DNA of 64,000 nt from Thermoprotei archaeon (GTDB lineage: Archaea > Thermoproteota > Thermoprotei_A > Sulfolobales > Sulfolobaceae). The stretch is from assembly GCA_049973945.1 (NCBI GenBank), contig JBMFJH010000005.1, positions 11,441 to 75,440 of the forward strand. Reading direction: 5' to 3'. Position numbers and translations under genes: made by a program. This document shows positions 10,231 to 63,116 of the stretch, in pieces. The number at the start of each line of letters is the position of its first letter. The first letter of the stretch is position 1. Under the pieces are notes generated by a model. The model had not been told where the DNA came from. It did no database searches and saw nothing but the letters and a program-made list of their open reading frames with translations.

Positions 10231-10908
10231 TCAGCCCTGCACCGCCTTGACCAGCCCGGTCTCGCCCAACAGGTTCAGGACTGTCCTCCCCAGTGGGGTT
10301 AGGCCCACCTCCTTCCTTTTGCCGTCCCTCGACCTCACCACCAGCCCCTCGTCCTCGAGGTCGGAGAGCTGTATCGAGATGGTCGAGGCCGACTTCCCGG
10401 TCTTCCTGGCCAGCTCCGAGACGCTCTCCCCCTCCCTTATCATGAGCAGGAGGTTCAGCTTCTCCCCGCTCGGGATCTGGGGTATCCTCAGGGGTAGCTC
10501 CTTGGAGTTCGTCATGGCCTCGTCGAAGGCCACAGCCTTAACCCTCACCCCGTCCGCCTGGGCGAGGATCAGGGCGATGAAGTAGAGCGACAGGAGAGTC
10601 ATCCTGGTGCCGCCGACGAGGTAGAACTCGTAGTCGTCGTAGCCGCCCACCCTCTCGCTGATCCTCTCGACGATCTCGTCGAAGTCCCACTCCGGGCTCA
10701 CCTTTATGACCTCCACGTCGGTCACGCCGACTGTGGCCAAATAGGAGACTATCGAGTTTATGGCCTCCTGCGACCTCTTCTGGGCGTAGCTGTCCTGGGA
10801 CTCGATGGTCACCAGGTAGACCTTCTCCACGTTCTGGATAGACCTCCTGGCGAGGACCCGCATGACATACTCCGCGGTGAAGCCGACGTTGAATATTAAG
10901 ACCGCCAC
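10231..10908 (-). CDS. csa3: Csa3-type CRISPR-associated regulator (CARF domain + C-terminal wHTH)
   Basis: N-terminal Rossmann-like domain with YLVGGTRMTLLSL loop. C-terminal wHTH ESVSELARKTGKSASTISIQLSDLEDEGLVVRSRDGKRKEVGLTPLG. 225 aa, typical Csa3 size. Confidence 0.8.
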   Translation of the reverse strand: MAVLIFNVGFTAEYVMRVLARRSIQNVEKVYLVTIESQDSYAQKRSQEAINSIVSYLATVGVTDVEVIKVSPEWDFDEIVERISERVGGYDDYEFYLVGGTRMTLLSLYFIALILAQADGVRVKAVAFDEAMTNSKELPLRIPQIPSGEKLNLLLMIREGESVSELARKTGKSASTISIQLSDLEDEGLVVRSRDGKRKEVGLTPLGRTVLNLLGETGLVKAVQG

Positions 10909-12974: not shown

Positions 12975-13199
12975 GTGGCGAAAGTAGTGAGGAGGAAAGT
13001 CGACGGCCGCGGGAGGATAACCATACCGAAGGAGTGGAGGGACAAATTCAAGGCCAGCGAGTTCGTGCTCGTCTTGAGGGACGACAGGATCGAGCTCTAC
13101 CCCCGCGCATCTGACCTAACGAAGCTGGTCGATAGCGTCGAAGTCGACGAGCTCCCAAGCGACTGGCACGAGCTCAAGAGGGAGGTTTTCAAGCCTTAG
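12975..13199 (+). CDS. AbrB/SpoVT-family antitoxin-like protein (VapB-like), no cognate toxin downstream
   Basis: GRITIPKEWRDKF swapped-hairpin motif; 74 aa; convergent with 13314-14732. Confidence 0.8.
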   Translation: MAKVVRRKVDGRGRITIPKEWRDKFKASEFVLVLRDDRIELYPRASDLTKLVDSVEVDELPSDWHELKREVFKP

Positions 13200-13313: not shown

Positions 13314-14732
13314 TTAACTGCCGAGGGCTTTGTTCAGCCCCAGGACAGCCTCCACGTCCACGCTCACGTCCTTGCCCCACCTTATCTCGACCTTCTTCAA
13401 CTCGTCCGCGAACTTGCCCCACCCCCTCTGCCTCGCCTCGGCCTTTATCCTGCTCAGGAATAGCCCCAACTCCATTGCTATGAAGGCGGCGACCCTCTCC
13501 TCCCTCCTCTCCTCGTATTTGGCTCCTTTCTTCTCCTCACTTCTACCCTCGTCAGCGCCCTCCACCAAGCCCAAGGTCACGTACTTCGAGAAGGTCAGCT
13601 TCCTCCACCTGTTCAGGGCGTGCTTGTCCCCGGTGACCACTAACGCCCCCTCGATCAGGTCTGGGTCTATCTTCGGGATGGCGATGTCGCAGTACGCGAA
13701 CTCCGAGGGCAGGACCCTCGCCCTCTCGAGGAGGCTCTCGTAGACGTAGAACGCCATTTCCCCCACGGGGTTCTTCTGGGTGTTCACGTTGTTCAGGATC
13801 TCGTTGTGGACGCAGTACGGGATGACCAAGTCCCTGACCTCGTGTGAGTGGATCCCGTTGTAGACCAGGTTGGTGTCGACCACCACGCTGTGCTCGAACG
13901 CCACGTCCCTGATCGACCTGGCCTGCCCGTACGTGCCGTCCCTGTTCAGCGCTCTCACCTTGATGTCGTACGCCCCCGCCAGGCGGAGCAGCCTCTCGGC
14001 CATGTCGTGGGAGTTTCGCGGGTCTATCGCGGACAAATAGACGTCCAGCTTGCCCAGGACGAACTTGTAGTCGGGGTTAGCGCTGCTCACCACCCTCTCG
14101 TCGTTGACGTACAACTCGATGGGGTCGCCCTCGTTGCTAGTCTTCCTCCTGTTCAGCTCGAAGGAGAGCCTCTTCATGTCCCTGTAGAACGCCGGCTCGT
14201 CGTCGCCGAGGTAGGCCGCAAGGCTCAGGTCGAGCTTGGTCTGGGGCTCCGGGACTCTCCCCAAGGGGACCAGCTGGCTGAACTTCCTCGGGACGAAGGG
14301 GTAGTAGTACCCCACCCAGGGCCCGAAGGCGAAGACCACGTTGACGAGGGGGAACCTATCGGGATCCGAGTCGTGCAGCTTAGTCAGGGCGACCGCCGTT
14401 ATGTTAGCGGCCGGGGTGACGGCGAGGAAAACCCTCTCGCACTTCTCCCCCTCGACCTTCTGCCTGAGCCACGAGAGGAACTTCTCGAAGCTCAGGGCCT
14501 GCGGGATCATCTCGGCGTTGACCGCGACTCCCCTCTCCCTCATCTCCCTGAAAAGGCCCTCCATCCTCTCCACAGCGGGCCTGTTGAAGTCGCCGTAGAG
14601 GACGATGAACCGGCCCGGCCTGAAGGCCTCGTACACCCTGACTATCGTGGAGAACGCGCTGTCGAAGACGAAGTCAGACCTGTTGACCGGGACGACGGCG
14701 CAGTCCACGGTGGTTCCGGTTAACGCCTCCAC
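13314..14732 (-). CDS. PIN-domain nuclease with large CARF-like N-terminal domain
   Basis: PIN acidic quartet in canonical order and context: D286 (VVVDTN), E311 (VHNEI), D349 (YCDIAI), D369 (VVTGDKH). The N-terminal 130 aa has a Rossmann-like pattern with a VFLAVTPAANITAVAL loop resembling the CARF T-G-G-x-K strand-loop. Confidence 0.7.
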   Translation of the reverse strand: MEALTGTTVDCAVVPVNRSDFVFDSAFSTIVRVYEAFRPGRFIVLYGDFNRPAVERMEGLFREMRERGVAVNAEMIPQALSFEKFLSWLRQKVEGEKCERVFLAVTPAANITAVALTKLHDSDPDRFPLVNVVFAFGPWVGYYYPFVPRKFSQLVPLGRVPEPQTKLDLSLAAYLGDDEPAFYRDMKRLSFELNRRKTSNEGDPIELYVNDERVVSSANPDYKFVLGKLDVYLSAIDPRNSHDMAERLLRLAGAYDIKVRALNRDGTYGQARSIRDVAFEHSVVVDTNLVYNGIHSHEVRDLVIPYCVHNEILNNVNTQKNPVGEMAFYVYESLLERARVLPSEFAYCDIAIPKIDPDLIEGALVVTGDKHALNRWRKLTFSKYVTLGLVEGADEGRSEEKKGAKYEERREERVAAFIAMELGLFLSRIKAEARQRGWGKFADELKKVEIRWGKDVSVDVEAVLGLNKALGS

Positions 14733-15017: not shown

Positions 15018-15572
15018 CTAATTTTCTTCGCCGTCCTCGCCCGCCGACCCGTCCTGCTCCTTCGCGATGGCCCGAGGGCTTACTCGAGCGAACTTGGAGT
15101 TGCACAGCATCGTGAACTCCTCCTTGTCCGCGTACATCAGGTCGTAGATGAAGCCCACGAACTCGTTCTGCATCAGGACGGGCACGTAAGAGTCGCCGAG
15201 CTCCACCCCGTTGACGAACCTCACCCTCTTCTGGTCGACCACGGTGAAGACGCCCTCGTTCTTGAGGAACTCGTTGAGCTTCGCCTTGTCCAGGGCTATC
15301 ATAAGCCTGTCGTGGACGACGTAGAGCTTCGCCCCGTACTTCTCCCTCATCAGGACGAAGATCAGGAGGGCAATTTCCTTCCTCCTCGCGACGATCACCG
15401 CCTTCGTCCCGTCCGAAACGGCCAAGCAGGCCTCCTCGTCGCGTGCGCTCTCGGCGAAGAGCTCGGTCACCCTCGTCAAGAGGGTATCCTCCGCGAGCTT
15501 AGACGTTATCCTCGCCGCCCGCTCCCTCCTCTCGTACTCGTCGTAGTGCCTGAAGACTCTGAAGAAGTCCAC
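15018..15572 (-). CDS. hypothetical protein, family with a second (disrupted) copy at 22866-23336
   Basis: 184-aa ORF; about 90 C-terminal residues clearly homologous to the ORF at 23016-23336. Confidence 0.6.
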   Translation of the reverse strand: MDFFRVFRHYDEYERRERAARITSKLAEDTLLTRVTELFAESARDEEACLAVSDGTKAVIVARRKEIALLIFVLMREKYGAKLYVVHDRLMIALDKAKLNEFLKNEGVFTVVDQKRVRFVNGVELGDSYVPVLMQNEFVGFIYDLMYADKEEFTMLCNSKFARVSPRAIAKEQDGSAGEDGEEN

Positions 15573-18682: not shown

Positions 18683-18852
18683 CCCGGGGCGCCGCTGTGT
18701 GACGAACGATCCCCCGTCTTGAAAGCGCTGTGCGAACTACAGGCCCACCCCGGTCGTCCTCTCCAGGGGGCGACCAGTTGATCGCCGACGGAGGCTCAGG
18801 GCGTGAGTGCGCGAAGCCCTGCGAGCGCCCCGTAAGGGCCGGGGACGGGTCA

Positions 18853-18876
18853 ATTTCAATTCCGTGGAGGATAGTT
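18853..18876 (+). repeat. solitary degenerate CRISPR-repeat-like sequence
   Basis: ATTTCAATTCCGTGGAGGATAGTT matches the array repeat CTTTCAATTCCATAGAGGATTATC at 18 of 24 positions, including 10 consecutive; no neighbouring repeats. Confidence 0.4.
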
Positions 18877-19271
18877 AGCGGAGCCAGTGAGCTGCGTCCT
18901 CGAGGACGGACGTCGTTTCGACCCTATTCGACGCGTGAGTCGACAGAGCTCTCGTTTCAGGTCGCTCTACGCGTGAAGCTTGAATTGGACTTCGTAATCG
19001 TCCTTGTAATGATAGCGTTAGGTCGCGGGCTACGCTGCGGGCGTCGCCACGTGTCGCGCTGCGCCCCGAGACGCCGCGTCCCGCTGACACGCAGAAGGAT
19101 GGGGGTAGAGAGTAAGCCCTGAACCGAGACGACAATTTGTTCTCACGCGTCACCGATTCCCTTGCGTACTTCAGGTGAGCATTGCGACTCGGTTGCGCCC
19201 TTACGATCTAGAGGGTCGACCCAGAAAGAAGGGGGCTGAAAGCGATCGTACTCTTCATGAGGGATGGAACG

Positions 19272-19627
19272 TTAAATTATTTCGGAGCTCCTCTTGGCCC
19301 CCTTCCTCACCAAGTCCTCGTCGTCGCTGGCCAGCGGGACGTTATACTTCCTGCTCAAGAACAGGTAGGTCGCGTCGTAGTAGGTTATCTTCTCTTCGAC
19401 CGCAAGCCTTATCACCTCCTCGTTAAGGCCAACGCTCTCCACGTTGATGAACTTGAGAACCTTGGAGAAGTCCTCCAGTAAGTCCTGCCTCTTGACCTTC
19501 CACAGGAAGTTCCCTATCTCGTAGAAAGCCAGATCCGTGGTCAAACACTCCTTGAATAGGTCTACTGATTCGCCTCTCAGCCGTAGGACCAGGTTAATAA
19601 TGGCTGAGTGTCTAACACGTACTTCAT
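19272..19627 (-). pseudogene. vapC: VapC-type PIN toxin, frameshifted
   Basis: ATG 19627 gives MKYVLDTQPLLTWSYG then TGA (19577-19579). The rest of the PIN domain (..ESVDLFKECLTTDLAFYEIGNFLWK..ITYYDATYLFLS..LASDDEDL) continues in another frame. ATGA overlap with the upstream antitoxin. Confidence 0.7.
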
Positions 19628-19842
19628 CTCTCCCTGTCCTCTCTGATTAACCTGGCTACCTCTTCTTTGGGGATTTTAAGCTCCTCGGCTATCCTCTCGG
19701 CAGACAGCCTGGCTTCCTCTTCTTTTCTGCGTACTTCCTCCTCCAGCGCCCTTCTCAACACCTCGGAGACGTTGATGTCGTACTTCTTGACCTTCTCTAA
19801 CGGCTCCCTCTGGACTTCAGTGGACACCGTGACCCAGTCCAT
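19624..19842 (-). CDS. vapB: ribbon-helix-helix (CopG-like) antitoxin
   Basis: VSTEVQREPLEKVKKYDINVSEVLRRALEEEV fits the strand-helix-helix pattern; 72 aa; 4-nt overlap with vapC. Confidence 0.6.
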   Translation of the reverse strand: MDWVTVSTEVQREPLEKVKKYDINVSEVLRRALEEEVRRKEEEARLSAERIAEELKIPKEEVARLIREDRER

Positions 19843-20184
19843 GAGTTTTACTACCCTGCATGGAGCTATTATTTTTGCTGTAAGAATCGCGTTGTCCTGT
19901 TCGTGTCCGATTCTGCGTTTGGATGAGCTTTCATATTCGGTTGAGCCCTAAGCAGGTGAGGGCATTTACTACATGGGTAGGTGCGCGGTAGGCTTAGCAA
20001 TAGATGAGATGAACCGGGTCGAAACTAAGCTCAATTACTAAAGTTACATTTTGATGGGACTGAGCAAGCCATAAGACTTTTAAGTTAAGTGGTGAGAATA
20101 CTTTCCAGGAGCATGAATTTTAAACAAAGGCGAGAAGAGGTAACCGCTCACTTATGACAATTCAGCTGTTTCAGTTGGCGATGC

Positions 20185-21384
20185 CTAATCTCCTTTCAAG
20201 TACTTTCCGTCGATCACTAAACGCGTGTCTATTAACCATGTATCGGGTTCAAGGCTCAACATTCGCTCGCAGAACTTATACTTTTCCCGAAGATTCCTGT
20301 TTCTAGACCTGAGGTTGCCTTTAAATTCTAGGTGCCCTTCTCTATTCGTTCTTAGAAATACACGTACCGAAGACGTACTACCAGTCGTAATCCTGTAGGT
20401 AACAGACTCTAAACCCCTAGACCTCACACGTAGCCTCGTTTCGTTTCCTATACCAACAGGAACCGATTCAACAAGTAGTTCGGGCGGCTCAATGGATCTA
20501 GACAAGTAGTTGACAAACCTCGAATACTCGGGCAGGTGAAGATGCTCGAAGAATATCCTGGTAAGTGTTAGGTGGCCGAAGTACGCTGCAAGTGCACTCG
20601 ACAGAACATAGTTTTTGAAGTTTAAGACGTCTCGCGACATCATACCACTTGCGTCGACATGCAAACGAGTGGGTCCGCTTCCTTGGTGCCCACCCGGACC
20701 GCCCCTACCCCTCGCTCCTGATGCGCCTGTCAAAGCCCTCAAATCGCCTGTATCGATTACCTGCAAGTATGCTTTGTAGAGTCCAAAAGCGGTGGCCATC
20801 GCCTCTTCGTCCTTCTGACCGTGTGCAGGTCCGCCGGCCCAGTGGTATCGTTCGTGATTGAACAGGTAAGTCAACGAGACGTCCCTGGTGACTTTAGCAG
20901 CGACGTTTTTAACTAGTTCAAAGGGGATCCCTAGCTTTTGACCGCCACCCATCCCGCCACCCAGGTTCTTAGCTATTTGCTTGATGAACGTTCCCACGTT
21001 CGCCAGGTACAACCTCGTCACCCACCTAGCGATCCTGTCCACGTTGTAATAAACGACGTCTCTACTCGGACAATAGACGGCCAAGTACTCCATGCATTGA
21101 ATCCCCTTGAGGTAATTCTCGTATAGTTTTTCTACATCTTTGTTGAAGGACTTCGATTCCGCGAATAACTTCACCACGTCAGCAACGTCCATGTCGCTTT
21201 CGACGTCGGCACTACCTTTAGTGCGCGCAAGAATATTCAGCACCTCGTCAACATCGACGAGTAGGTCTACATAGTCGCTCCCCTTGGGCTCGAGCTCAGT
21301 CTTACGTCGGGAAAACTCCAAAACCGTTGGTGGCTCACACCTTATGTCGCAACTGTTACACTCGCAGGAATAAGCGGGAACCAT
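20185..21384 (-). CDS. hypothetical protein with HExxH motif and N-terminal Cys cluster
   Basis: 399-aa ORF in an AT-rich island; CECNSCDIRC near the N-terminus; FNHERYHW contains HExxH; Gly/Arg-rich linker RGRGGPGGHQG. Confidence 0.6.
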   Translation of the reverse strand: MVPAYSCECNSCDIRCEPPTVLEFSRRKTELEPKGSDYVDLLVDVDEVLNILARTKGSADVESDMDVADVVKLFAESKSFNKDVEKLYENYLKGIQCMEYLAVYCPSRDVVYYNVDRIARWVTRLYLANVGTFIKQIAKNLGGGMGGGQKLGIPFELVKNVAAKVTRDVSLTYLFNHERYHWAGGPAHGQKDEEAMATAFGLYKAYLQVIDTGDLRALTGASGARGRGGPGGHQGSGPTRLHVDASGMMSRDVLNFKNYVLSSALAAYFGHLTLTRIFFEHLHLPEYSRFVNYLSRSIEPPELLVESVPVGIGNETRLRVRSRGLESVTYRITTGSTSSVRVFLRTNREGHLEFKGNLRSRNRNLREKYKFCERMLSLEPDTWLIDTRLVIDGKYLKGD

Positions 21385-22252
21385 TGACGATAGATTTCAG
21401 AAGGATTTAAAAAACCTTATTTATCCTTGATCGTCAACTAGCTGTACGGTTAACATAACGGCAAAAGATACACGTGATCTATTATGGCACGAGGCAGTTG
21501 CTACTGTATTTCACGTGTAAGATAGGTTACAGCTCAAACTCACAGACATTCAACGATAACCCACCCTGACGTTGTACTTCGCTGGCCTGGCTGGCTTTTC
21601 ATCTTTTAACGTAATAGGTCGACTGAGTGACCCATCGTTAAAACTCTAAGCGACTCATAGAAGGACGATGACTAGGTAGCTTAATTGTCCATAACTGAGC
21701 TTTATGGCAAGAGAAGCGTCGGATGCTACTGGGAGAATGGCAGGGAAAAATAGCTCACATAAAGTAACTAAGGTTGCGCCACTATAGGAGGCTAAACAGA
21801 CTCTCTAGTAAGTTCTTGACACTTGGAGTAAAGTCCTCAGAACCTTTAACTTATTCATGTATATGTGTCATGATATGAATGGTTAGTAAGTTGATGACGA
21901 AACCCTAGTTAATTAATTGAATAACTACCCCTTAAGGGATGATCAAGCTGGCTTTACATTTGTGACAAATGCTAGTAGCGATTCCGTGTTTACTAATTAA
22001 GCCGATTTTTATAGGGCTGTTTAGAATCGAAATTTTCTAACTTTTTCATGAATTATCGTCAAGGCAATATCGCTTCTCTCAGAGTCCAGTCAAGAGCTCA
22101 GGATCTCCTTCTTCGAAAGCGAGATAAATCGGAGGGTTTGACCGTCGGCGTTAAAACCCCCTGAGCCTAGTTACTAACACAAGCTCTGATTTCTAATTAT
22201 CACTTCGTCTCTTTTCTTGAGTGATAATCGTTTGACCAGTCGACGCGTTGGA

Positions 22253-22534
22253 CTACGTCTTTTTAGTTTTTCCCATTCCCATAATAGCGAGGTGGAGGGG
22301 GGTATTACCTTCAGCATTTCGGGCGTTGACGTCGGCACCATGTTCGACCAAGAATTTTACGATATCGAGATAACCGTACCAGGCCGCTAGGTGGAGGGGG
22401 GTATTGCCATCTTTGTCTCTAATGTTCACATCACATTGGTGGATTTCGACTAAATATTTGACGCGTTGTAGATCTCCTTCCTCAACGGCTTCAAACAATT
22501 CCTCACAGTTTACATTGGCCATGTGATACGACAA
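22253..22534 (-). CDS. ankyrin-repeat protein
   Basis: Two canonical ANK units (DKDGNTPLHLAAWYGYLDIVKFLVEHGADVN, ARNAEGNTPLHLAI) plus an N-terminal capping unit; 93 aa; AT-rich codon usage. Confidence 0.8.
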   Translation of the reverse strand: MSYHMANVNCEELFEAVEEGDLQRVKYLVEIHQCDVNIRDKDGNTPLHLAAWYGYLDIVKFLVEHGADVNARNAEGNTPLHLAIMGMGKTKKT

Positions 22535-22865
22535 GATTAGACAATTATTAAATGTTTCGATATTATGCTAAGGCCTCGCTCTTAAGGTGCGTCTAAAAGA
22601 TATAACCCGTTAGGAGATCCCTCGTCGTTGGCTTCGCAAATGACCCCCCGGAACGAGAAGAGGTGCTCGGGGCCCACCTCGCTACCGGGCCCGACGCGCG
22701 CCGCGAACGCCCCTATAGTCTCGTAATCCGAGCCACTCGAAAAGGGTTTGAGTGACAGCCGTGGACGCACGTAGAGTGAACGCTTTTAATGTCTTTAGCC
22801 CTTCCTAAAACTGCGACGTCATTCAAGTTGTCGACTTCGACGAACTCGAGGAGAGGAAGAGAGCT

Positions 22866-23336
22866 ATGGCCGTGGCGGCCAAGCTCGGGAACGACGCAGT
22901 CCTGCAAAGGGTGGTCGAGCTCCTCGCCGAGGACGTGCGAGACGAGGAGGCCTGCTCCGCCCTCTCCGACGGGATTAAGGCGGTGGTCATCGCGTGGGGG
23001 AGGTAGAGGGCCGTCGTGCTCTTCGTCCTCATGAGGGAGAAGTACGGGGCCGAGCTCTACCAGATCCGCGACGACCTGGTGATCGCGGTGGACAAGGTGA
23101 AGCTCAACGAGTTCCTCAAGAACGAGGGCGTCTTCATCGTGGTCGACAAGAAGAGGGTGAAGTTCGTGAGCGAGGTAGAGCTGGACGGCTCCACGATACC
23201 GGTCCTGATACAGGAGGAGCCCCTCAACTTCATCTACGACCTGATGTACGTGGACAGGGAAGACCACATGGCGTTGTGCAGCCCCAACCTCATCCAGGCG
23301 GGCCTGCGGGCGCACGCGCAGTCGTCTAAGCGTTAG
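22866..23336 (+). pseudogene. disrupted paralog of 15018-15572 (in-frame TAG)
   Basis: ATG 22866 and ORF 23016-23336 share one frame, separated by TAG at 23004-23006 (..KAVVIAWGR*RAVVLFVLMREKYG..). The homologous N-terminus (VVDFDELEERKR) has no start codon. Confidence 0.65.
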
Positions 23337-23671
23337 GGTAGCCGAGCGCCGCGATAAATTACCCTCTCCTTCGCCCCTCCTCCTCGAGGCGACGGTAGCT
23401 GGGACAGGGGGCTCGCCCTAGGAGCTGGGGTAAGGTGGCGGGACTAAAAATGCGTGAATCGAGTTAGCCGTATCCCCACCCGCGACGCTACGGTGGGGGG
23501 AAGCGTCTGTCGGTACGGCAGTCCCGACCTCCCAAGTCTGGAAGGGTGCGTGAGGGACTGCCGTCGCAACGTTTTACTTCCGCGTTCAATGAACCCGGCG
23601 GAGAGTCCCTGGACGCGGGGAGATAGAAGCGCGGGACGTCCGCGACGCGGAGGGCCACCTCTCAGGGAACC

Positions 23672-23902
23672 TCAGTCCAACCCGCTCAACTTCCTTATTA
23701 AGGCGTCCCTGCTGACCCTCCCAGTCGCCCTTAGCCGGGCCTCCGCCCTCAGTGCTGCGGTCGTTTCGGTCGGTCGACTCCACATGCTAAGCACCCACAA
23801 CACGCTGTTGGGGTCGGTGACGGCCTTGACTTTGAACTCGCGGTTCATCAGGACTATCATGTAGCAGTCCTTCACGCCGTCGACGTACCTGATACAAACC
23901 AT
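23672..23902 (-). CDS. hypothetical small protein
   Basis: 76-aa ORF only; moderate coding look. Confidence 0.35.
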   Translation of the reverse strand: MVCIRYVDGVKDCYMIVLMNREFKVKAVTDPNSVLWVLSMWSRPTETTAALRAEARLRATGRVSRDALIRKLSGLD

Positions 23903-23949
23903 CGTGCTTGTCGCGGAGATCTTTTACGTTTCGACGCCGTCTATGTCGC

Positions 23950-24174
23950 TCAACGGCCTGAACGGGTCGAATATATCATCGGCATCGTCTTACCGCAGTT
24001 CTTCACGATGCAGTTGATCACGACGAGCTTGACCGTCTTGTCCAGGTCGTTCCTGTGCAACAGCCTCAGCAGGGCCTGTGGCTCGTCTGACTCGTCGCTG
24101 TTGTCGCCCAGGGCTTCGGTTATGATCCTGATGAAGTCGGAGGGCGAGACCGACTGGCCCTGCACCACGATCAA
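23950..24174 (-). CDS. hypothetical small protein
   Basis: 74-aa ORF, 4-nt overlap with the upstream ORF 24171-24617 suggests an operon. Confidence 0.4.
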   Translation of the reverse strand: MIVVQGQSVSPSDFIRIITEALGDNSDESDEPQALLRLLHRNDLDKTVKLVVINCIVKNCGKTMPMIYSTRSGR

Positions 24175-24617
24175 CCACCTGGTTGAGGTTTGACTTCAGC
24201 GGTCTCGGCCTCTTCCTGGCTCGGTGGCTTAATCTTGACGGAGAAGCAGATGGGGAAGCCTGGGACTTCGTTGATGTCGTCTGGGTTCACGTTGATTTCG
24301 GTGGCGTGCTTAATCAGTTTCGCCCTCATTTTCGCCACGAGTTCACAGAACTTGGTCTCGGGAACACGACACACTGACGTCGCTATATACGCGTCTATCG
24401 ACGATGCAATGATGCCAGATATGACGATATCTTTCATTTCCTCTGGGATGTATATTTGAATCTTGTCCCTCTCGTTGACGAACTTTACCACGCCGTTCTC
24501 GTCAACGACATAATATTCACTCGGTGGCACTGCGTTAAGGCATTTGACGAGGTATTCCATGACGGGTTCTGGTATAATTATCCTATCGTCTTCCTTGCCA
24601 AGAACGTAGTACTTCAT
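24171..24617 (-). CDS. hypothetical protein
   Basis: 148-aa ORF, AT-richer codon usage, ATG start preceded by an AT-rich region. Confidence 0.5.
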   Translation of the reverse strand: MKYYVLGKEDDRIIIPEPVMEYLVKCLNAVPPSEYYVVDENGVVKFVNERDKIQIYIPEEMKDIVISGIIASSIDAYIATSVCRVPETKFCELVAKMRAKLIKHATEINVNPDDINEVPGFPICFSVKIKPPSQEEAETAEVKPQPGG

Positions 24618-24953
24618 AGATATCCCCTAATCCCCCATCTTGACTGATAATAAGCTTTACGTGAGTTTGACACTGGTCATCGGTTCCCTTTACAACGGTA
24701 CGCGACCCAGGCTGGTGGCCACGAACCTCACCGAAAGGATAAAACTCTTCAAGGTGGCGATCTTCCTGAACCTAGAGCCCTGCAAGAGCCTATCCGAGCG
24801 TAGGTAGCGGGCCTCCAGGCTCGCAAATACCGGATGCCAAGCAAGCTCAGAGACTTCGTGAACGGGTGAGGGTCATACGCTAACCGACGCCGGGGCCTTT
24901 GCTCCGACCGAAGAGGTTTGCGAGATGATTTGGAAAATCTGACCCCCGCCCGA

Positions 24954-25286
24954 TCACGAGTAGGGGCAGATCGTCCCGTACAGGCACGACTTGCAGAAGG
25001 GGTTCCTCTCTTCCTCGACCTCCTCCAGGAGGCTCGACAGGTAATCCAGCGCGCCGGCGTTGGGTATCACCAGATCGCCTACGTCTTCGCCCGGCGTGGT
25101 CGGGACTATCAGGGTCGCGCGGCTCTCCTCCCCCCTCATGCACATGTAAGCGATGATCACGGCCCTCCCGTAGATGTGCCTCAGGCTCCGCCTGCTTATC
25201 GTCGATTCGACGACCAGGTTCCCCACGACCGAGTCTGGGATCCCCACCACCCCCACCCACTCGCCGGCTAAGAAGTAGACTTCCAT
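24954..25286 (-). CDS. hypothetical protein
   Basis: 110-aa ORF; C-terminal CKSCLYGTICP Cys pattern. Confidence 0.4.
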   Translation of the reverse strand: MEVYFLAGEWVGVVGIPDSVVGNLVVESTISRRSLRHIYGRAVIIAYMCMRGEESRATLIVPTTPGEDVGDLVIPNAGALDYLSSLLEEVEEERNPFCKSCLYGTICPYS

Positions 25287-25659
25287 CCTCAGACCAGCAG
25301 TGGCGTGAGGCCCCGAGGGGAGCTCGGTGACCGCCGGGCTTGCGACAAAGCGGTTGGGGGACTGGGTCTTCGAACGTTCAGGGTGCGAGTTGAAGGGGAA
25401 GCCTCGGATAACGGCGAGAAGTACGGCGACTACCGGTCGCCGGTGTTACCCGTCGGGGGGCCGAGGTTTCGCGGAGCGGCTCATAGCTCGCCCCTCGACA
25501 GTCCGCCTGGGTCGGGCTTGCATTGCGGCCGAACCGGCTAAGGACTCGTCGAACGCTGACGGAGGGGAGGCTCCTCGGAGGGCCATAGCGGTCGTAGCGG
25601 CGCAACCGGGCCTAAAAAACCCGCCGCTACGCTTAAATCCCGTCTCGGGACTTCACCTC

Positions 25660-25914
25660 GTGGGCGACGAGGACGTCCTTTTCTTCCTCGAGATGACCGA
25701 GCTGCTCGGCCTGGACTGCGTCGATCAAGAGGAGTTCAACAGGGTGTCGCTCACCGAGAACCTGGACTTGTACGTCCAAAGGTTGAAGCTCCTCTGCTCG
25801 AAAGGGTTGTACGACCAGGTGAGGAACGTCAGGGCCCTGAAGAACTGCGACCCCGAGGAGGTCTGCAACGCGGTGCTGGGGGCGAGGGAGAAGTTCGGCT
25901 GGCTGTTCGAGTAA
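25660..25914 (+). CDS. hypothetical small protein
   Basis: Only the last ~85 codons of ORF 25327-25914 look coding; GTG 25660 or ATG 25693 as start. Confidence 0.35.
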   Translation: MGDEDVLFFLEMTELLGLDCVDQEEFNRVSLTENLDLYVQRLKLLCSKGLYDQVRNVRALKNCDPEEVCNAVLGAREKFGWLFE

Positions 25915-26068
25915 GGCCCTCCGCCGACTCCACAGCGATCGACGCGAGCTACCCAGAGAACTTCAGCAGCGACGAGGCTAGCCCTACTTCCTTACCCGCG
26001 TCCGCGGTGTTCTCGAACAACCCCGGCCGAAGCCCAGTCAACGATTTAATTGCCAAATCAAATTAATA

Positions 26069-26440
26069 GTGCCCATGCGCATCCTCACCTTCGACATCCA
26101 GGACGGACTCCAGCCCCCGCCAGGAGCGGGGGAGGTCTTGGTCGAGACGATCGGGTCGATAATGGAGTTCTCCGGCGCGGACGTGATGGCCGTGATCGAA
26201 GTGGTGCCCAGGGGTAAGGGCGAGTACGACACGGTAGTCCGCCTCAACGACGACGAAGCGAACGACCTAGTCCAGGAGGTGAGGCTCGCCGTGACGGCCC
26301 TGGGGGAGGACTTGGTCGACGTCCTTATGGACTACCCCGACCCGGAGGACAGGTACGCGGCGGTAGTGATCCTGCACAACAGGAGGCCCTTCATCGTAAT
26401 ATTGGGGAAGCGACAGACGATGTGCCCGCGCACGAACTGA
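26069..26440 (+). CDS. hypothetical protein
   Basis: 123-aa ORF, acidic, host-like codon usage. Confidence 0.45.
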   Translation: MPMRILTFDIQDGLQPPPGAGEVLVETIGSIMEFSGADVMAVIEVVPRGKGEYDTVVRLNDDEANDLVQEVRLAVTALGEDLVDVLMDYPDPEDRYAAVVILHNRRPFIVILGKRQTMCPRTN

Positions 26441-27134
26441 GTTTACGCCTGGCTACCTGTGACGCTTAGATAGCCAAAGGCGCGCTCCTTCCCCCGTCGT
26501 TTCCCGCCCCAGTCCCTTTTTCCCGTTTTACCCTGGCCTTACCTGAGGGGACGTAGCTGAGACGCCTCATTTCTTGCTCGGACTTTCACCCTCGTATCTG
26601 GGGATCGACGTCACGTACCTTATTTCCACTGTCCGCGGGAGCTCATATCCTGCCGGGCCGACGAAGAGCTACGCGTACCACACCGCTACGCGTACAAGGC
26701 CGTGAGGGCTTCCGTGACAGCTCGTCAGGAGTTGAAGGGTAAAACTGACCGAGGGCGTGGCGGTGGTTACTTCAGCTCCAGGATGGTAGAGGCGACGGGT
26801 GGACATTTACCGGAGTGAAAGGGTAATTGGGAAAAGGCGTTTGACAAAATTTCCAATTTTATTATGAACATACAAAATATTCGTTTTCTTTCGTGCGAGT
26901 TTGTATAACTGGTCTCCTTTTACCCTTGCGGGGAGAGCGGCTTCCCGACCCTTCCAGACCCGCAGGGCTCCCGGTAGTCTTGCAAACGTTTACCTAAGCG
27001 AGAACTGAACGGTGAACTTTCCGTAGCACGGTTTTCCACCGCGTCCCGAACTGTTGGGAAATCGTCCCAGGAAAGCGTAGGCCCGCCCCGCGATTAAAAA
27101 AGCGTAATTTAAACGCCCTCCGAGCCGACCCGGG

Positions 27135-27809
27135 CTAGTCCTCCCCCTCGAGGAAATCGGGTACGTCCACCCCGTGCAGCCTCGCGAAGTTCCCGACGCT
27201 ACTGACGAACGCCTCGAACTCGCCGTCCTGCGCCACGGCGTCGAGCTGCCCGTTGACCACTTGCCTGAACGCGAAGTAGTCCATGACCCTCTCGTTCCCG
27301 TTGGAGTCGTAAGTGTATATCGAGGTCCTGCCTCCCCCCTCCGAGAGGTACACCGAGACGTCGTAGTCCGGGAATTTGATCACCACGTCCGGCTCCTCCG
27401 CCTCGTAGTCGCTTACAGGTTCCACGTAGACCGTGTTCCCGCTGGCGAGGAGGAAGGCGTTTATGTAGAACTCGCGCAGTTCCCTGTAGACGCTCGAGAA
27501 GTAGTACATCACCCTCGAGTACACCTTCCCCCTGATGACGTCCAAGTCGAGGTCCCTGATCCTGATCTCGGCGCCGCTTAACTCTGCGTACTTGACTCGA
27601 AGCGGCACCTTCCACTCCCCGATCACGAAGTCGTACAGGTTGTAGGCTATGTCGAACAGGTTGCCGTACCTCACTATCACTTCCTCCAGCGGAGTGTCCG
27701 AGGTCACGAGCAGGAAGCGGTTCTCCTTCCCGACTTCCTCGATGAGCTTGTCGACGAGATCCTCGATGAAGACGATGAGCCTAGTCGTGTCCTTGTTTAT
27801 CTTCACCAC
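27135..27809 (-). CDS. hypothetical protein
   Basis: 224-aa ORF with good coding look, next to the trailer end of CRISPR array 1. Confidence 0.6.
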   Translation of the reverse strand: MVKINKDTTRLIVFIEDLVDKLIEEVGKENRFLLVTSDTPLEEVIVRYGNLFDIAYNLYDFVIGEWKVPLRVKYAELSGAEIRIRDLDLDVIRGKVYSRVMYYFSSVYRELREFYINAFLLASGNTVYVEPVSDYEAEEPDVVIKFPDYDVSVYLSEGGGRTSIYTYDSNGNERVMDYFAFRQVVNGQLDAVAQDGEFEAFVSSVGNFARLHGVDVPDFLEGED

Positions 27810-28002
27810 CCCGGTTCAGACGGCGGGGCGGAGTATAAGCTTTCCCCGCTTTTTCGTTCGGCGATGAAGCGGTGAAGGCAGGCCTTCGATGGGGGGGGGG
27901 GTGACTACTAACGCAGTTAAGCGGCTGTCCCCAGCCGCTTGTCCGCTTTTATGGAGGGTTAAGACAGTCTACCCCTTGGTCTAACGTAGAGTCAGCATAT
28001 AA

Positions 28003-29875
28003 CTTTCAATTTCATTGGGGATTAACGCAGGTGGTCGAATACCCCATTTCGACGTACTTGCTGAGGACTTTCAATTCCTTGAGGATTACCTATGTTATCA
28101 TTACGTAGCATATCGGCGACCTGGTGTAACTTTCGTTCCGTGTATGAGGATTATGGGCATTGTCTTCTCTCAGGCTTGTGAGCCCCCACTTGTCTTTCAA
28201 TTCCATAGAGGATTATCTTAACGAATAGAAAGTTTTTAAAGTTATGGAAAGACACAAACTTTCAATTCCATAGAGGATTATCGGAACTCTGCGGCGATAA
28301 CTGTTGGGATATTTGTGAGGAAGCTTTCAATTCCATAGAGGATTATCTTACAACAACGCAAAGGCGTACGACAAATACCAGATAAAGCTTTCAATTCCAT
28401 AGAGGATTATCGTATGATGGCAGAACCCCTCTCCACATCGCTGTAATGCGTACTTTCAATTCCATAGAGGATTATCCTTGAGGAAGTAAATTCCATCGCC
28501 AAGCACGTAGAGTTCTCTTTCAATTCCATAGAGGATTGTCATGGAGACAGTTAAAAAGATATCAAAATGGGTTGAGAGCGAACTTTCAATTCCATAGAGG
28601 ATTATCGCTTGTCGGCGAAAAAGGCGTTCGAACTGACAAACAAGATACTTTCAATTCCATAGAGGATTATCACGATGGTCAATTACTACGCGTCGCCGCA
28701 GTCAATTATCTTTCAATTCCATAGAGGATTATCAGTTTACGCCTTTCCAGTCTTTCACATGCACATCAAGCACTTTCAATTCCATAGAGGATTATCCAAA
28801 GTCGAATATTCCCAAACCCATTAAAGAGATATCTATCTTTCAATTCCATAGAGGATTACCTCGAGCCCGCCAAGCTTCTGGTCGCGATGAAGATTGCGAG
28901 TACTTTCAATTCCATAGAGGATTACCTTGACGCCTACGCGATCCGCCACAGGCTCAACAGGAGCGCTTTCAATTCCATAGAGGATTATTGGTTCTTCGGC
29001 TGATAAGCAACAAGCATTGTCAGCACCCCTTTCAATTCCATAGAGGATTATCGTGTTAGAAACCCCTGCTGAAACCACCCAGGAAGGGGGGCTTTCAATT
29101 CCATAGAGGATTATCTTAAAGAACTCCACGGCGTGGACATCTCGGAAGTCTTAAATCTTTCAATTCCATAGAGGATTATCTTAGCCGTCCCTGTGTTGGC
29201 CCTCGTGGCGTCATCAGCCCTTTCAATTCCATAGAGGATTATCTCTATAGAAATGTAAGTTTTGCTCTTTTAGGAGGTCTTTCAATTCCATAGAGGATTA
29301 TCCGATAACCGAGTACGCGAGTTCTTCGATGGCGTTGTAGTCCCTTTCAATTCCATAGAGGATTATCGGACACCGTGCTTCACGATGACGTACGGGACGC
29401 GTTCTGACTTTCAATTCCATAGAGGATTATCTTCCTTCCCTTTCCAAGCCAAGTCCCGCAAAGCTTAAAAACCTTTCAATTCCATAGAGGATTATTCCCT
29501 TTCCATCTTCCACAGGATGAGCTTGCCCACGATCGCTTTCAATTCCATAGAGGATTATCTCATAGGTCTGATAATCTTGACGGTTTGGCGTTTCCTCTTC
29601 TTTCAATTCCATAGAGGATTATCTATATAGATGCTGACGTGGAACTATATATTAGTTTGAAACTTTCAATTCCATAGAGGATTATCGGACATCGTTTATT
29701 ACAATATTTGAAACAAAGTTGAATATCTTTCAATTCCATAGAGGATTATCAGTGCGGAGGATGTGCGAAGCGGATGATACGTGCATCTACTTTCAATTCC
29801 ATAGAGGATTATCCCTCCGCGACGATATACCTAGCGTACCACAGCAGTTCGCTTTCAATTCCATAGAGGATTATC
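28003..29875 (-). CRISPR. CRISPR array 1: 30 repeats, 29 spacers; repeat (transcript sense) GATAATCCTCTATGGAATTGAAAG
   Basis: 24-nt repeat with a period of about 64 nt. The three repeats at the 28003 end are degenerate (trailer). A conserved leader sits at the 29876 side, so transcription is inferred on the minus strand. Confidence 0.95.
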
Positions 29876-30130
29876 TGAAAACTTATATACCTCCCCTCAT
29901 CGCCCCTTGTTTTCTGTTTTTCAAGACGCTAGTGATTAAACCACGTTATAAGCCTTACGAGAATTTTTCCCAGTTCCTATCTGGAGTTCACTTGGCGAAA
30001 AGTTGTGAACTTATCGTGCTAAAGCCAATTTCCCGGCCGCCCCCGGGAAGCCCACGTGTTCTTGACAAAGAGAATGACTTGAGGAATGGACGCGGTCGGC
30101 AGGAACCCCGGCCTAACGCAAATTCCTCGC
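29876..30130 (-). promoter_or_regulatory. leader of array 1
   Basis: Shares with the other two leaders a TATATAA-like box 6-16 nt from the first repeat, a CCxGGGAAGyCCAsGTGTTCT block, and GGACGCGGTC at about 212 nt from the repeat. Confidence 0.6.
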
Positions 30131-31418
30131 GGGACCCGGGAAGGGTCACGGGCCGAGCCCTTGAGCACGGCACGAACAACGCGGACGAACCAGCTTCACG
30201 CCCCGTTCGGGGGCCTCTAACGGCCCGAGGGCTTTCGCGCCGCCCCGCGACCTCCCTCACCTCGCCCGTCTCCACCCTTCCCCGCCCGGCCTGGGAGAAC
30301 TTTCGCCTCTCTTAATCTAGAAAAGGCGAGAGCTAGGGAGCCAACGATCTGCTACCCGGGCGTCGCGGGGCTATCCGCCTCTGAGGAGAGCGACGAGGTC
30401 GAGATCCCGACAATACGGGTTGCGACCCTGCAAAGACCTCCTCCCGGCGACTGCCCTCATTCGAGAACATCCCTTCGCCCAACGCTCCTTCACGCCGCTT
30501 CGAGAGCCCCTCGCCCTGGGCCTGCACTTTGCCCCCGCGTCGACTACCAACGGAGCTCGGCCAAGGCGCGGCCGGAAGCGTCGCGGCTTTCGATCCTCCC
30601 CAGGCGACCAATGACAGCCCGCGGGACGTCGGGATGACGGCGCGGGTCGGATCCCTTTGGGCACCGACAGCCCAGGGGTGTCGTGCGCCTCTCTGCCCCC
30701 AGCTCGCCCACGAGTCCTTCTGGGCACCGTTAGGCCCCAAGCGCCTCTCATCCACCGAGCTGAGGAACCGCGCCGTCTGGGAGCCTCCACGCTCGTACCG
30801 CCGTCCCAGGGCGTCACGACCCGTTTACTCCCGCGCGGCCCTAGAACTCATTGGCCGGGAGAGCCTCCGACTGACGTCGGTGGGGCGGACAGGGCCGTTA
30901 GCCACTCCCTGTGTATCAAGACGGCCGGGAGAGCCTAATCTGCGTCCAGACGCCTGTCTACCCGCTTTCAGTCCCACACGGACTCGTCAACGGTATCGCC
31001 GGCGCTCTTTCAGAGGCTGAGGTTCGTAGTACGGAGCGGCATGGCGTTTGGGGTCTACCCCAACGTAGGGCACACCAGGAGTGCATCTAGGAGGCCGTCT
31101 CTAACGGAAAGGGAACACCGGTTCCGAGAGGTAACGACGGGATACGACAGTGGGATGATGACAGACGGAGAGGTCCCTTCACGTTTGTCGCGAGCCCCTA
31201 CGACGGCTTCGGTCTACGCCGCGTTCTGCGGGGTCTGAGAGATGGGGGAACGGGGCAAGTCCTCCGCTTCCGGACGCCTTGAAACCGAATTTTTACGATA
31301 TGCCAAGGAGCACGACGGTGAGGTCGCGGTGCCCCTCGCAAACGATCGTCCGGTCGGAGAGGGCGGGGAACCCCCACACCCAGTCGAACGGGACACGGAA
31401 CAGAGAGGTTGTAGAAGT

Positions 31419-31742
31419 TCAGGGGTTGGCCCTGAGTAAGCCGAGCTCCGAGAGCAACTCGGAGGCCCTCCCGCCCAACTTCCCGCGCACCCCCCTCCTT
31501 ATCAGGTTGAACATGTAGAGGGAAGCCTCTAGGATCGCCTCCTCGTCGTATTTATTTACCAGAGACAGGTACTCCTCGCAGTCGGCGACGTAACCGCTCG
31601 CCGGGCCGCGATAGGTGAGACGCCCGTCGACCTCGTAGAAGTCGTCTATGGGGATCCCCAAAGAAAGGGAGATTAAGAGAGCCTTCTCGTCAACCAGGCT
31701 CCTTTCGTTCTCCTTCACGCAGTTAAAGACCGCCGAAGCCAT
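31419..31742 (-). CDS. hypothetical protein
   Basis: 107-aa ORF, the only coding-looking stretch in a long GC-rich ORF-poor tract. Confidence 0.45.
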   Translation of the reverse strand: MASAVFNCVKENERSLVDEKALLISLSLGIPIDDFYEVDGRLTYRGPASGYVADCEEYLSLVNKYDEEAILEASLYMFNLIRRGVRGKLGGRASELLSELGLLRANP

Positions 31743-49722: not shown

Positions 49723-52044
49723 CTACTCCCTCTTCAGTAGCGAGTACATGTTAACAGCAGTCCTGAACTTGAGCAGGAACGAAAGGACTTTTTCCGCGTC
49801 GTCGCCGGGATAGGTCAGGAACTTCTTGTAGATCCCCTTCATCTCCTCGGCGTACTTCTCGTTCCTGGCGTTCAGGTAGGCGTAGCTGACCAGCGCCCTG
49901 TGATCCTCGCCCGCCTCGACCATCGACCCTATCTGGTAGAGCTTGTAGAGGTAAGCGCTCGGCACCTTGTCCCCGATGTTCTTAGCGACAGTTAGGAACT
50001 CCTCGGCCTCCTCCCAGCTGAGCGAGGTCAGCTCCTTACTCCCCTCCCTGTACTTCTCGAAGATGTTGCTCGCCACCCTGCCCCCGCTCCCCGTCCTCTC
50101 AGCCTTCGCTAAGGCCTCGTACTCCCTAGCGAAGGAGTAGGCGTAGGCTATGGGGTACTTCTTCTTGAAGACGAACACTCCCCCGGAGACCGAGATCGAC
50201 GGTATTACCCTTCTGACCAGCTTCGAGAGGCGGACGAGGAGCTCGAAGGCCTCGTCCCACTTCCCGTAGACCGCCAGGTCGTCTCCCCCGGAGTAGAGTA
50301 TCACGACCGGGGCCCCCTGGCCAGTCCTATCGGTGACCTCCCTCACCACTACGTGCGCGAAGGCGAAGTCCAACAGGGTCGAGAACGTCATGAACCTGCC
50401 GGGGAAGGCGGAGAGCCTCTTGGCGATCTCGCCTATCCTGTCCCCGTCCGTCACCCCCAGGGCGAGGTAATTGCCGAGCTCGTCGAGGCTCTTGAACCTA
50501 CCCCCCTCGTCCACGGGGTGGTAGGTGCTCAGGGTGATGTAGCCGAAGCTGACCCCCTCCTCTGCCAGCTCCTCGAGGACGAAGTTCGTGGTGTCGTTGA
50601 CCGCGAACACCCTTATCCTCTTTGCGACGTCTTTCTTGGTCTGGATCAGGCTCTTCAAGAACGCGACGTCTTTCCTGTTGCCTGTCGTGCCCTTCCTGGA
50701 CTCGTCCCCTCTCACGTTGTGGACTAACAGGAAGCCCACGTTCAGAGGCTCTATGTAGATCTCGCCGACGTTGTCCCTGTAGGCGTTCTCCCCCCTCGCC
50801 CCGTCCTTGTACACCACCTCTATCACGTAGTCCAGGTTCCTCGTCGAGTGGCCGACGATCAGGGAGATCAGGTTCATCTCCGAGATGTACTGCGGCCTTC
50901 CTGTTTCGGCGCGGGGCGTAACCTCGCCGGCGGTCAGCGTCTCTATCCCCTCTACCTTATCGACCTCGTAGTACCTGGGGCTCAGGTCGCCGAAGTAGTC
51001 GACCTTGACGTCCTTAGTCACGGAGGGTCTGCCGACTGTCCGGAGGTTCTTGAAGGCTTCGTCCAGAGCCCTCTGGAAGTCCCTGTCCTCCTCGTTCTCG
51101 CTGTATATCTTCATCTTCGCCACTTCTATTTCCCCGCTGAGCGAGTAGGCGAACTGGAGCTCGTAAGCGCTCCACTCCTCGAGGTCGGTCAGCACTTTCT
51201 CTACGTCTTTCACCTTCTTCTCGTCCAGGCCACAGGCCACGAATATCAGCTTGCCCGGTTCGAAGGATATGTTGTGCAACGAGGTCAGTCCCAGGACTTC
51301 GGCGAGCTTGTCCGTCAGGGCCCTCTGGAGCAGCTGGAGGAAGAAGCTCCTCCCCCTCAGCCTCTTGGAGGTCTCCGCCTCCCCCTTCACGTTGGTCAGG
51401 AACCTCTGGATCCCCTTGACGTCGATCAAGAGGAGCCTCACCTTCTGGCAGACGGAGAGTGGGGCGGCCAGCCTGCTGTGGCCGTAGAGCGTCGTATTGG
51501 GCACAGCTTGGTAAACAGCTGCCGGCACCAGCAACGCGACCGTCCTGTATATGTAGTCGTAGGTCTCGAGGAGGCTCAGTGGGTCCTTTATCTTCTTGGC
51601 CTTTTCGGCCAGGCTCTTGAGTACCTCCTCGATCTTCTTGTAGCTCACGAAGGCCTCGCTCATTTTCCTAGTCCCGTAGCTTTCAGGGCGCGCGTTGAAG
51701 TCTATGTAAGTCACGGGGTACCAGACCTCCTTGTCCCGCAGTTTGTCCAGGTCGTTTGGGCTCACGTCTAGGACGGGGTCTAGCAGGGGGGTCGTGAAGG
51801 GCTGTTGGGGGCCGGCCTCGGTTCCTATCCTCTCGGAGGCCGACGCGTAGTCCGCTACCCTCCACTTCCCCTCCTTGAATATCTTGACGTACTCCTCGCC
51901 CAGGTAGTCCTGAAGGAAGTCACACGTCAGTCTGTCGTGTTCGTGGAAGTCGCCTTCAAGGACGCACCTCGGCCTCTCCCCGGCCCTTTGCAGTATTTTC
52001 CCCACGTCGTGGAGCAGGGTGACCAGTATCAGCTTCGCGTCCAT
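49723..52044 (-). CDS. cas10: Cas10 (type III large subunit) with HD and GGDD motifs
   Basis: N-terminal HD (LLHDVGK, H12-D13, later HEHD); Palm-1-like LLLIDVKGIQRFL; cyclase motif ILYSGGDDLAVYG; 773 aa. Confidence 0.9.
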   Translation of the reverse strand: MDAKLILVTLLHDVGKILQRAGERPRCVLEGDFHEHDRLTCDFLQDYLGEEYVKIFKEGKWRVADYASASERIGTEAGPQQPFTTPLLDPVLDVSPNDLDKLRDKEVWYPVTYIDFNARPESYGTRKMSEAFVSYKKIEEVLKSLAEKAKKIKDPLSLLETYDYIYRTVALLVPAAVYQAVPNTTLYGHSRLAAPLSVCQKVRLLLIDVKGIQRFLTNVKGEAETSKRLRGRSFFLQLLQRALTDKLAEVLGLTSLHNISFEPGKLIFVACGLDEKKVKDVEKVLTDLEEWSAYELQFAYSLSGEIEVAKMKIYSENEEDRDFQRALDEAFKNLRTVGRPSVTKDVKVDYFGDLSPRYYEVDKVEGIETLTAGEVTPRAETGRPQYISEMNLISLIVGHSTRNLDYVIEVVYKDGARGENAYRDNVGEIYIEPLNVGFLLVHNVRGDESRKGTTGNRKDVAFLKSLIQTKKDVAKRIRVFAVNDTTNFVLEELAEEGVSFGYITLSTYHPVDEGGRFKSLDELGNYLALGVTDGDRIGEIAKRLSAFPGRFMTFSTLLDFAFAHVVVREVTDRTGQGAPVVILYSGGDDLAVYGKWDEAFELLVRLSKLVRRVIPSISVSGGVFVFKKKYPIAYAYSFAREYEALAKAERTGSGGRVASNIFEKYREGSKELTSLSWEEAEEFLTVAKNIGDKVPSAYLYKLYQIGSMVEAGEDHRALVSYAYLNARNEKYAEEMKGIYKKFLTYPGDDAEKVLSFLLKFRTAVNMYSLLKRE

Positions 52045-61778: not shown

Positions 61779-63116
<1,338 letters not shown>

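Follow-up and report, generated by a model that had tools for sequence, protein, structure and literature searches.

We analysed a 64,000-nucleotide stretch of a Thermoprotei archaeon genome of the Sulfolobaceae (contig JBMFJH010000005.1 of assembly GCA_049973945.1, positions 11,441 to 75,440; hereafter the window), and in it a minus-strand gene at 13314..14732 that encodes a CARF sensor domain fused to a PIN nuclease domain with an intact active site. Three independent lines of evidence support this architecture: a match to a family profile along the full length of the protein, structure models that match CARF proteins and PIN domains, and conservation of the four catalytic acidic residues. 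This agrees with the initial annotation of the locus, which had proposed, from the DNA letters and their open reading frames (ORFs), a CARF-like sensor fused to a catalytically complete PIN domain. The protein is an ordinary member of the archaeal CARF_m3+PIN family, which is already catalogued as a predicted type III CRISPR effector. We propose, with a probability of roughly 0.6, that it would serve as an ancillary effector of type III CRISPR systems, namely a metal-dependent PIN ribonuclease (RNase) activated by cyclic oligoadenylate (cOA).

Domain architecture and the PIN active site

The PADLOC profile PDLC01983, named CARF_m3--CARF_PIN, aligns residues 10–462 of the protein with positions 2–394 of its 397 (E 1.1e-112), and a second profile of the same name, PDLC01984, also matches (E 1.7e-30). 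Residue numbers here and throughout refer to a 472-residue product; for the 464-residue form discussed below, 8 is to be subtracted. An AlphaFold2 model of the full-length protein, built on an alignment of 66 family sequences, has a mean predicted local distance difference test score (pLDDT) of 93.6 and a predicted template modelling score of 0.92. Comparison of this model with the PDB using Foldseek returned CARF proteins for all of the top 28 matches, most of them at a probability of 0.9–1.0, including Cdn1, Can2, Csm6, Card1, Cad1, Cam1, Csa3 and the ring nuclease Sso2081, with a TM-score to Cam1 of 0.62–0.64 (target-normalised). The CARF assignment of the N-terminal domain, for which the initial annotation had suggested just such a comparison, is thereby borne out. 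Cdn1, the top structural match, was also considered as a PIN protein in its own right and rejected, the Cdn1 paper making no mention of PIN.

The CARF domain (residues 9–157; 14262..14708, minus strand) is Rossmann-like in the model, with strands at residues 9–16, 41–46, 70–75, 98–105, 129–134 and 152–157 and helices between them. Profile comparisons reach the same region: a Csx1 profile covers residues 34–157, only the CARF part of the protein (E 8.6e-6), and the family profile weakly matches the CARF domain of Can2 (E 0.046). A scan of the target protein with NCBIfam gave no match, phmmer against PDB sequences gave chance matches only, and a scan of the 66 family members with Pfam yielded neither PIN nor CARF models.

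A putative ligand loop, T106-P-A-A-N110 (14403..14417, minus strand), is predicted between the fourth strand (98–105) and the helix at residues 110–122, where the initial annotation had placed it, and the profile search aligns it with the 'VTGGTK' loop of Can2. Relative to the CARF-type pattern T-G-G-[T/S]-[K/R], the position and the threonine are kept, while other residues stand in for the glycine and the basic residue. The loop consensus of the family is [T/S]-P-G-S-R; the first column holds T or S in 63 of the 66 representatives, P follows in 32, and the alanines and the asparagine of the target are found in 21 (A108), 11 (A109) and 7 (N110), each departure of TPAAN from the consensus being present in other family members as well. 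At the end of the CARF part, a signature F-x-F-G-P-W..Y-P-x-V-P-R (residues 134–149) is invariant or nearly so across the family, as are N194 and G253 in the middle region, which the secondary structure of the model delimits between the CARF and PIN domains (residues 158–279; 13896..14261, minus strand).

The PIN nuclease domain (residues 280–395; 13548..13895, minus strand) was delimited using a separate model of residues 256–472 (pLDDT 86.5), its Foldseek matches and the PADLOC 'CARF+PIN' profile PDLC01182, which matches residues 282–381 (E 1e-11). The leading Foldseek matches of this C-terminal model are PIN domains at a probability of 0.92–1.00, comprising a Thermus protein (3ix7), PINA (5f4h), AF0591 (1o4w), VapC, SMG6 and SiRe_0806 (9JXX). 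According to the AlphaFold2 model, D286 (codon 13875-13877, minus strand, as for all four) immediately follows the strand at residues 283–285, E311 (13800-13802) lies within the helix after strand 302–305, D349 (13686-13688) begins the helix after strand 339–341, and D369 (13626-13628) immediately follows strand 364–367. All four residues of this acidic quartet are present where the initial annotation had listed them; D286, E311 and D369 occur in 66 of the 66 family representatives, and position 349 carries D in 63 of them and E in the other 3. The models therefore indicate a C-terminal domain of PIN fold, with four acidic residues at canonical positions in an intact and strongly conserved site; the target protein gave no HEPN profile match. 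The C-terminal extension that follows (residues 396–472; 13317..13547, minus strand), modelled as a long helix at residues 412–436 and a small β-hairpin, is poorly conserved and carries an insertion in the target relative to the Sulfolobales homologues.

The identity of the structural matches also bears on the substrate. Second best among them is the PIN domain of PINA, an archaeal Holliday-junction ATPase, which would favour a domain acting on DNA structures such as flaps or junctions, in the manner of FEN-like or PINA-type PIN proteins. We consider such a role very improbable, given that the other leading matches include VapC, the SMG6/EST1A PIN domain and uncharacterised stand-alone PIN proteins, VapC toxins and SMG6/EST1A PIN domains being RNases, and that the secondary structure of the model appears to lack the helical arch and the H3TH motif of FEN-type nucleases.

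The ORF list of the window gives the gene 472 residues at 13314-14732 (minus strand), from a first codon GTG to a TAA stop at 13314-13316, and this is the extent used in the initial annotation. The ORF is real; its true start, however, is likely the GTG at 14706-14708, which would yield a coding sequence of 13314..14708 (minus strand) and 464 residues. A 100% identical NCBI protein (P0001, from a 'Thermoprotei archaeon' metagenome-assembled genome) is annotated with 464 residues and this start, eight codons downstream; the M-x-C encoded at this position corresponds to the start of all close homologues; and a TATA-like CTAATAAG lies ~28 nt 5' of GTG 14708, a placement that would fit a leaderless mRNA. 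Because the true start probably lies eight codons later, the residue numbers of the initial annotation are probably 8 too high. Upstream, the gene has an intergenic region of its own of 285 bp. The ORF directly beyond it on the same strand (15018-15572, 184 aa) is without a Pfam or PADLOC match, and its NCBIfam and PHROGs matches are at chance level only (E > 0.05).

Family membership and linkage to CRISPR loci

In the classification of Makarova et al. (2025), CARF_m3 + PIN proteins are Crf10/Crf11, an archaea-specific combination of sensor and effector that is coded 's,e', without 'r' (PMC12669027, Supplementary Table 2). The family is small. Among 1.84 billion cluster representatives, an exhaustive HMMER search recovered 83 relatives of the target, and five further homologues, from Sulfolobales genomes and metagenomes, share 34–42% identity with it (E down to 3e-93); a profile search of a word-indexed protein database added no additional relatives. 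Named members are all Thermoprotei, namely Stygiolobus, Acidianus, Sulfuracidifex, Metallosphaera, Sulfodiicoccus, Infirmifilum and metagenome-assembled genomes of Desulfurococcales and Sulfolobales. Searches of PHROGs and of a viral structure library gave nothing meaningful for the target and hence no hint of a homologue in viruses.

We compared gene neighbourhoods at nine homologue loci, with several kb to 10 kb of flank per side. As to an association of homologues with type III loci, on which the initial annotation had made its proposal depend, a CRISPR or cas feature occurs within 10 kb at six of the nine loci, and type III core genes at only two. The first of these two is in Metallosphaera tengchongensis, where csx1 (CARF+HEPN) flanks the homologue on one side and a cmr cassette on the other, with cas1, cas2, cas6 and a 56-repeat array nearby; the second is in Sulfodiicoccus acidiphilus (L012, 8634-11224), where the start of the homologue overlaps the stop of csx1 by 4 nt and type III genes are again close. 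Elsewhere, cas6 adjoins the homologue at locus P0064, the metagenomic locus P0017 (L015, 974-3199) has csa3 on the same strand as the homologue and 78 nt upstream of it, an APE2256 CARF gene is found 4 kb from the homologue in Acidianus infernus, and a four-repeat CRISPR remnant is situated 0.4 kb upstream in Stygiolobus caldivivus. The closely spaced, co-oriented csa3 and the 4-nt overlap with csx1 suggest co-transcription with these other CARF genes at the two loci concerned. The family is thus CRISPR-linked, but loosely, and in the tightly linked cases the homologue accompanies Csx1 and does not replace it. A role for the target as a replacement of Csx1, which the initial annotation had implied, was rejected, the two genes standing side by side in Metallosphaera and Sulfodiicoccus.

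The nearest structurally studied relative, which binds cyclic tetra-adenylate (cA4), shares the CARF clade of the target family but belongs to a sister subfamily. It is SiRe_0806 of Sulfolobus islandicus, represented by PDB entry 9JXW and, together with cA4, by 9JXX, both released on 2025-07-23; no characterisation paper turned up in the literature searched, either for SiRe_0806 and 9JXW or, among work from 2023 onwards, for CARF together with PIN. A 92-residue fragment of SiRe_0806 gave no match in the word-indexed protein database. A metagenome gene was recovered at 90% identity to this fragment, and its product scores 9e-174 on PDLC01982, the third CARF_m3--CARF_PIN profile. This SiRe_0806-like protein is colinear with the target family, the alignment bringing together the TPG loop, DTN, E and T-x-D of the two.

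The type III cassette in the window and the proposed function

As the initial annotation had stated, the window contains a type III system. Its cassette includes cas10/csm1 (49723..52044, minus strand; TIGR02578 191 bits, above cut-off, and PADLOC Cas10), csm5 (52050-53060), csm3 (53079-54017) and csm4 (56084-56929). Cas10 retains an intact HD motif (LLHDVGK) along with an intact cyclase motif (SGGDDLAV), and cOA synthesis is therefore expected. Since the GGDD motif of this Cas10 is intact, homologues of the target occur in type III loci of Metallosphaera and Sulfodiicoccus, and the SiRe_0806-like protein scores as CARF_m3--CARF_PIN, a link between the target and type III signalling is plausible.

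In the mechanism that we propose, a Csm-type complex would bind a target transcript, upon which the GGDD cyclase of Cas10 would make cOA. The most likely species, and ligand, is cA4, which is the main product of Sulfolobales type III systems and is present in the SiRe_0806 crystal structure 9JXX. The cOA would diffuse and bind in a pocket formed by two CARF domains of a homodimer, a pocket that would include the T106–N110 loop, and the resulting movement would pass along the conserved FGPW..YP.VPR signature, then through the middle region, and so reach the PIN domains. There, the D286/E311/D349/D369 site would hold Mg2+ or Mn2+ and cleave single-stranded RNA non-specifically, slowing host and virus.

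Several observations weigh against this reading. Those that concern the PIN domain are the modest Foldseek E-values (best 5.7e-3), a Pfam PIN_9 score on the target protein of only 13 bits against a cut-off of 26.3, a Pfam PIN model matched at E <= 0.01 by 0 of the 66 family members, and a profile of the PIN region that, searched against the PDB, returned no PIN domain and only chance chemokine matches. Others concern the link to signalling: the gene lies 35 kb from cas10, outside the cassette and behind an upstream intergenic region of its own; TPAAN has neither the glycine nor the basic residue that the family T-P-G-S-R and the classic TGGTK have in common; and three of the nine homologue loci (Sulfuracidifex tepidarius, Infirmifilum sp. 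and P0053) have no CRISPR feature within 10 kb. Finally, SiRe_0806 is only weakly related to the family in sequence, with an hhalign probability of 7% (E 0.005), and the Sulfolobales CARF-PIN protein ST0035 showed no cA4-induced RNase activity (PMC6546367).

The distance from cas10, the deviating loop, the loci devoid of CRISPR features and the unresponsiveness of ST0035 to cA4 would also favour a CARF-PIN nuclease uncoupled from type III systems, which would sense another nucleotide or metabolite, or carry a degenerate CARF domain as a dimerisation module, and work on its own as an RNase of stress response or defence. A related family, CARF_m1+PIN (Crf6), is described as typically lacking CRISPR association (PMC12669027, Supplementary Table 2), which points the same way. 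We nonetheless hold an uncoupled nuclease to be unlikely, because most of the homologue loci compared are CRISPR-linked, two of them lying inside type III loci and one of these overlapping csx1, because the sister-subfamily protein SiRe_0806 was crystallised with cA4, and because the classification counts CARF_m3+PIN as sensor plus effector of the cOA pathway.

Two further CARF genes lie beside the type III cassette and had been overlooked in the initial annotation, which reported no HEPN effector anywhere in the window. This negative statement itself holds for the ~40 window ORFs that were scanned, none of which encodes a CARF+HEPN protein. The gene at 58511-59485 (minus strand), adjoining the cassette, encodes a 324-aa Csx1-family CARF9 protein of which only the CARF part matches CARF+HEPN profiles; an R-x4-6-H motif is not visible in its C-terminal 100 residues. 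The gene at 61779-63053 (minus strand) encodes a fusion of a CARF7/APE2256 ring-nuclease-like domain (NF040951, 487 bits; PDLC01926, E 1.6e-80) with a retropepsin-like aspartic protease at residues 322–424 (TIGR03698, E 8e-22). Its product also matches the PADLOC model PEPT_D, 'Aspartyl protease, in the type III operon in Sulfolobales', and could be a cOA-controlled protease. Stand-alone aspartic protease genes also occur near the CARF-PIN homologue at locus L013.

Since no CARF+HEPN RNase was found near the cassette, the CARF-PIN protein could be the main or only cOA-activated nuclease here, a PIN-based and metal-dependent arm of the type III response. The unusual TPAAN loop could also mean that the subfamily responds to a signal other than cA4, or joint control with Csa3, the csa3 gene being located at 10231-10908, 2.4 kb from the CARF-PIN gene and on the same strand. 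We put this extension forward as a doubtful one.

The ring-nuclease-like CARF7 gene raises a different possibility, in which the target would remove the signal: it would bind and degrade cOA in its CARF pocket or at its PIN site and act as an off-switch, not as a toxic RNase. Ring nucleases are numerous among CARF proteins, and one of them, Sso2081/Crn1, figures in the structural matches of the target; the CARF7 gene suggests that signal turnover matters in this genome, and relatives have their homologue beside a true RNase, Csx1. Such an off-switch nevertheless seems improbable to us, as the invariant four-acid, PIN-type metal site exceeds what a ring nuclease needs, known CARF-type ring nucleases being metal-independent, and as Crf10/Crf11 are coded without 'r'. 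The cOA-activated PIN RNase remains our preferred reading.

On the opposite strand, convergent with the CARF-PIN gene and separated from it by a gap of 114 bp, lies an AbrB/MazE-type gene (12975-13199, plus strand; Pfam E 1e-7, TIGR01439 E 1e-9), just as the initial annotation had described. AbrB/MazE-fold antitoxins commonly partner PIN toxins, and this gene is real and stands without an adjacent toxin gene to pair with, which would speak for a VapBC-like pair with the target as toxin and the AbrB-type protein as antitoxin. We give this arrangement hardly any credence and rejected an AbrB-PIN toxin-antitoxin pair because the genes are convergent, and so form no operon, and because the pair is not conserved in relatives. 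Among the homologue loci there is nothing beyond a weak MazE match in Acidianus, 1.8 kb off and on the other strand, and, in Metallosphaera, VapBC as a complete pair of its own. The toxin would, moreover, have 464 residues and a sensor domain, compared with ~130 residues for VapC.

The window carries a full CRISPR-Cas neighbourhood. Three CRISPR arrays with the common repeat CTTTCAATTCCATAGAGGATTA lie at 28003-29873, 34380-37874 and 46619-49083; they hold 28, 55 and 39 repeats, respectively, and the third is in the opposite orientation. A 1455-aa ORF between two of the arrays (39320-43687, minus strand) has weak matches to NACHT/STAND-type nucleoside triphosphatases. The cas1 gene is interrupted within 44323-45225 and 45228-46076 (both minus strand), with csa1 directly upstream; its N-terminal part (profile positions 1–119) ends at 44872 and its C-terminal part (159–326) starts at 44853 in the other ORF, an interruption that is due to a frameshift, a stop or an assembly error. 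Runs of ORFs without a Pfam match extend over 18700-28000 and 30000-34300 and may represent a variable or integrated region flanking the arrays; within the former, a 399-aa ORF (20185-21384) lies in an AT-rich stretch with a GC content of 0.46 versus about 0.60. Inside the type III cassette, the segment 54531-55972 (minus strand) encodes an ABC/OLD-like AAA ATPase with AriA/PtuA-like matches (55019-55972) and a small 'cas_RFas, cluster 17 associated' protein (54531-55061).

Comparison with known systems

VapC-type PIN toxins share the fold of the target's C-terminal domain and the placement of the acidic quartet, with residues following strands 1, 3 and 4 and one within the helix that succeeds strand 2. 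Unlike VapC, the target has no cognate antitoxin gene upstream, carries ~280 extra N-terminal residues with a sensor domain, and is too diverged in sequence for the Pfam PIN models. In its predicted logic it resembles Csx1 and Csm6, where cOA sensed by a CARF dimer turns on a non-specific RNase in the same polypeptide, and csx1 genes neighbour CARF-PIN homologues in two relatives, Metallosphaera and Sulfodiicoccus. The effector part differs, being HEPN, metal-independent and marked by R-x4-6-H in Csx1/Csm6, whereas that of the target is PIN, of a metal-dependent type and built on four acidic residues. The combination of a cOA sensor with a non-HEPN nuclease is shared with Can2/Card1/Cdn1 (CARF + PD-(D/E)xK) and with Cami1 (CARF + RelE), although these proteins have other nuclease folds and CARF4 and CARF7 domains in place of CARF_m3.

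Closer comparisons are offered by proteins with the same two domains. Shah et al. (2018) reported that ST0035 of Sulfurisphaera tokodaii, a 'CARF-PIN toxin', was only weakly cross-linked to cA4 (PMC6546367). Like the target, ST0035 is a Sulfolobales CARF-PIN protein and is considered a type III accessory (PMC6546367), a likeness drawn from its description. SiRe_0806 has the same order of CARF and then PIN, and its PIN domain has the highest query TM-score of the match list (0.41); it differs in matching another subfamily profile, with a family profile E-value of only 0.44, and in being ~50–60 residues shorter between CARF and PIN, so that its DTN falls at about residue 220 instead of 286. The statement in the initial annotation that no CARF-PIN fusion had been characterised was consequently out of date, ST0035 having been tested in 2018 and the SiRe_0806 structures released in 2025. 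Its claim of novelty was likewise overstated: the architecture has a family name, curated profiles, an early biochemical test and a ligand-bound structure from a sister subfamily.

What interest remains in the target lies in a type III cassette with no HEPN effector seen nearby, in the atypical loop and in the activity itself, no published biochemistry showing cOA-dependent PIN RNase activity having been found in the searchable literature. Because the protein is well preserved, comes from a thermophilic metagenome-assembled genome and accompanies a cassette that appears to be without a HEPN effector, the target could be a reasonable candidate for a test of cOA-dependent PIN activity. A worked CARF-PIN case would bring a metal-dependent RNase into the repertoire of type III effectors and throw light on the control of a PIN active site by paired CARF domains. 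Set beside the typical CARF_m3+PIN proteins (Crf10/Crf11, PDLC01983), the target has the same domain order, the same restriction to archaea and an intact PIN site, and differs in nothing that defines the family, its loop of TPAAN in place of T-P-G-S-R and the insertion in its C-terminal tail being the distinguishing features. It therefore adds no new concept and stands as a well-preserved member of a known, biochemically under-studied kind.

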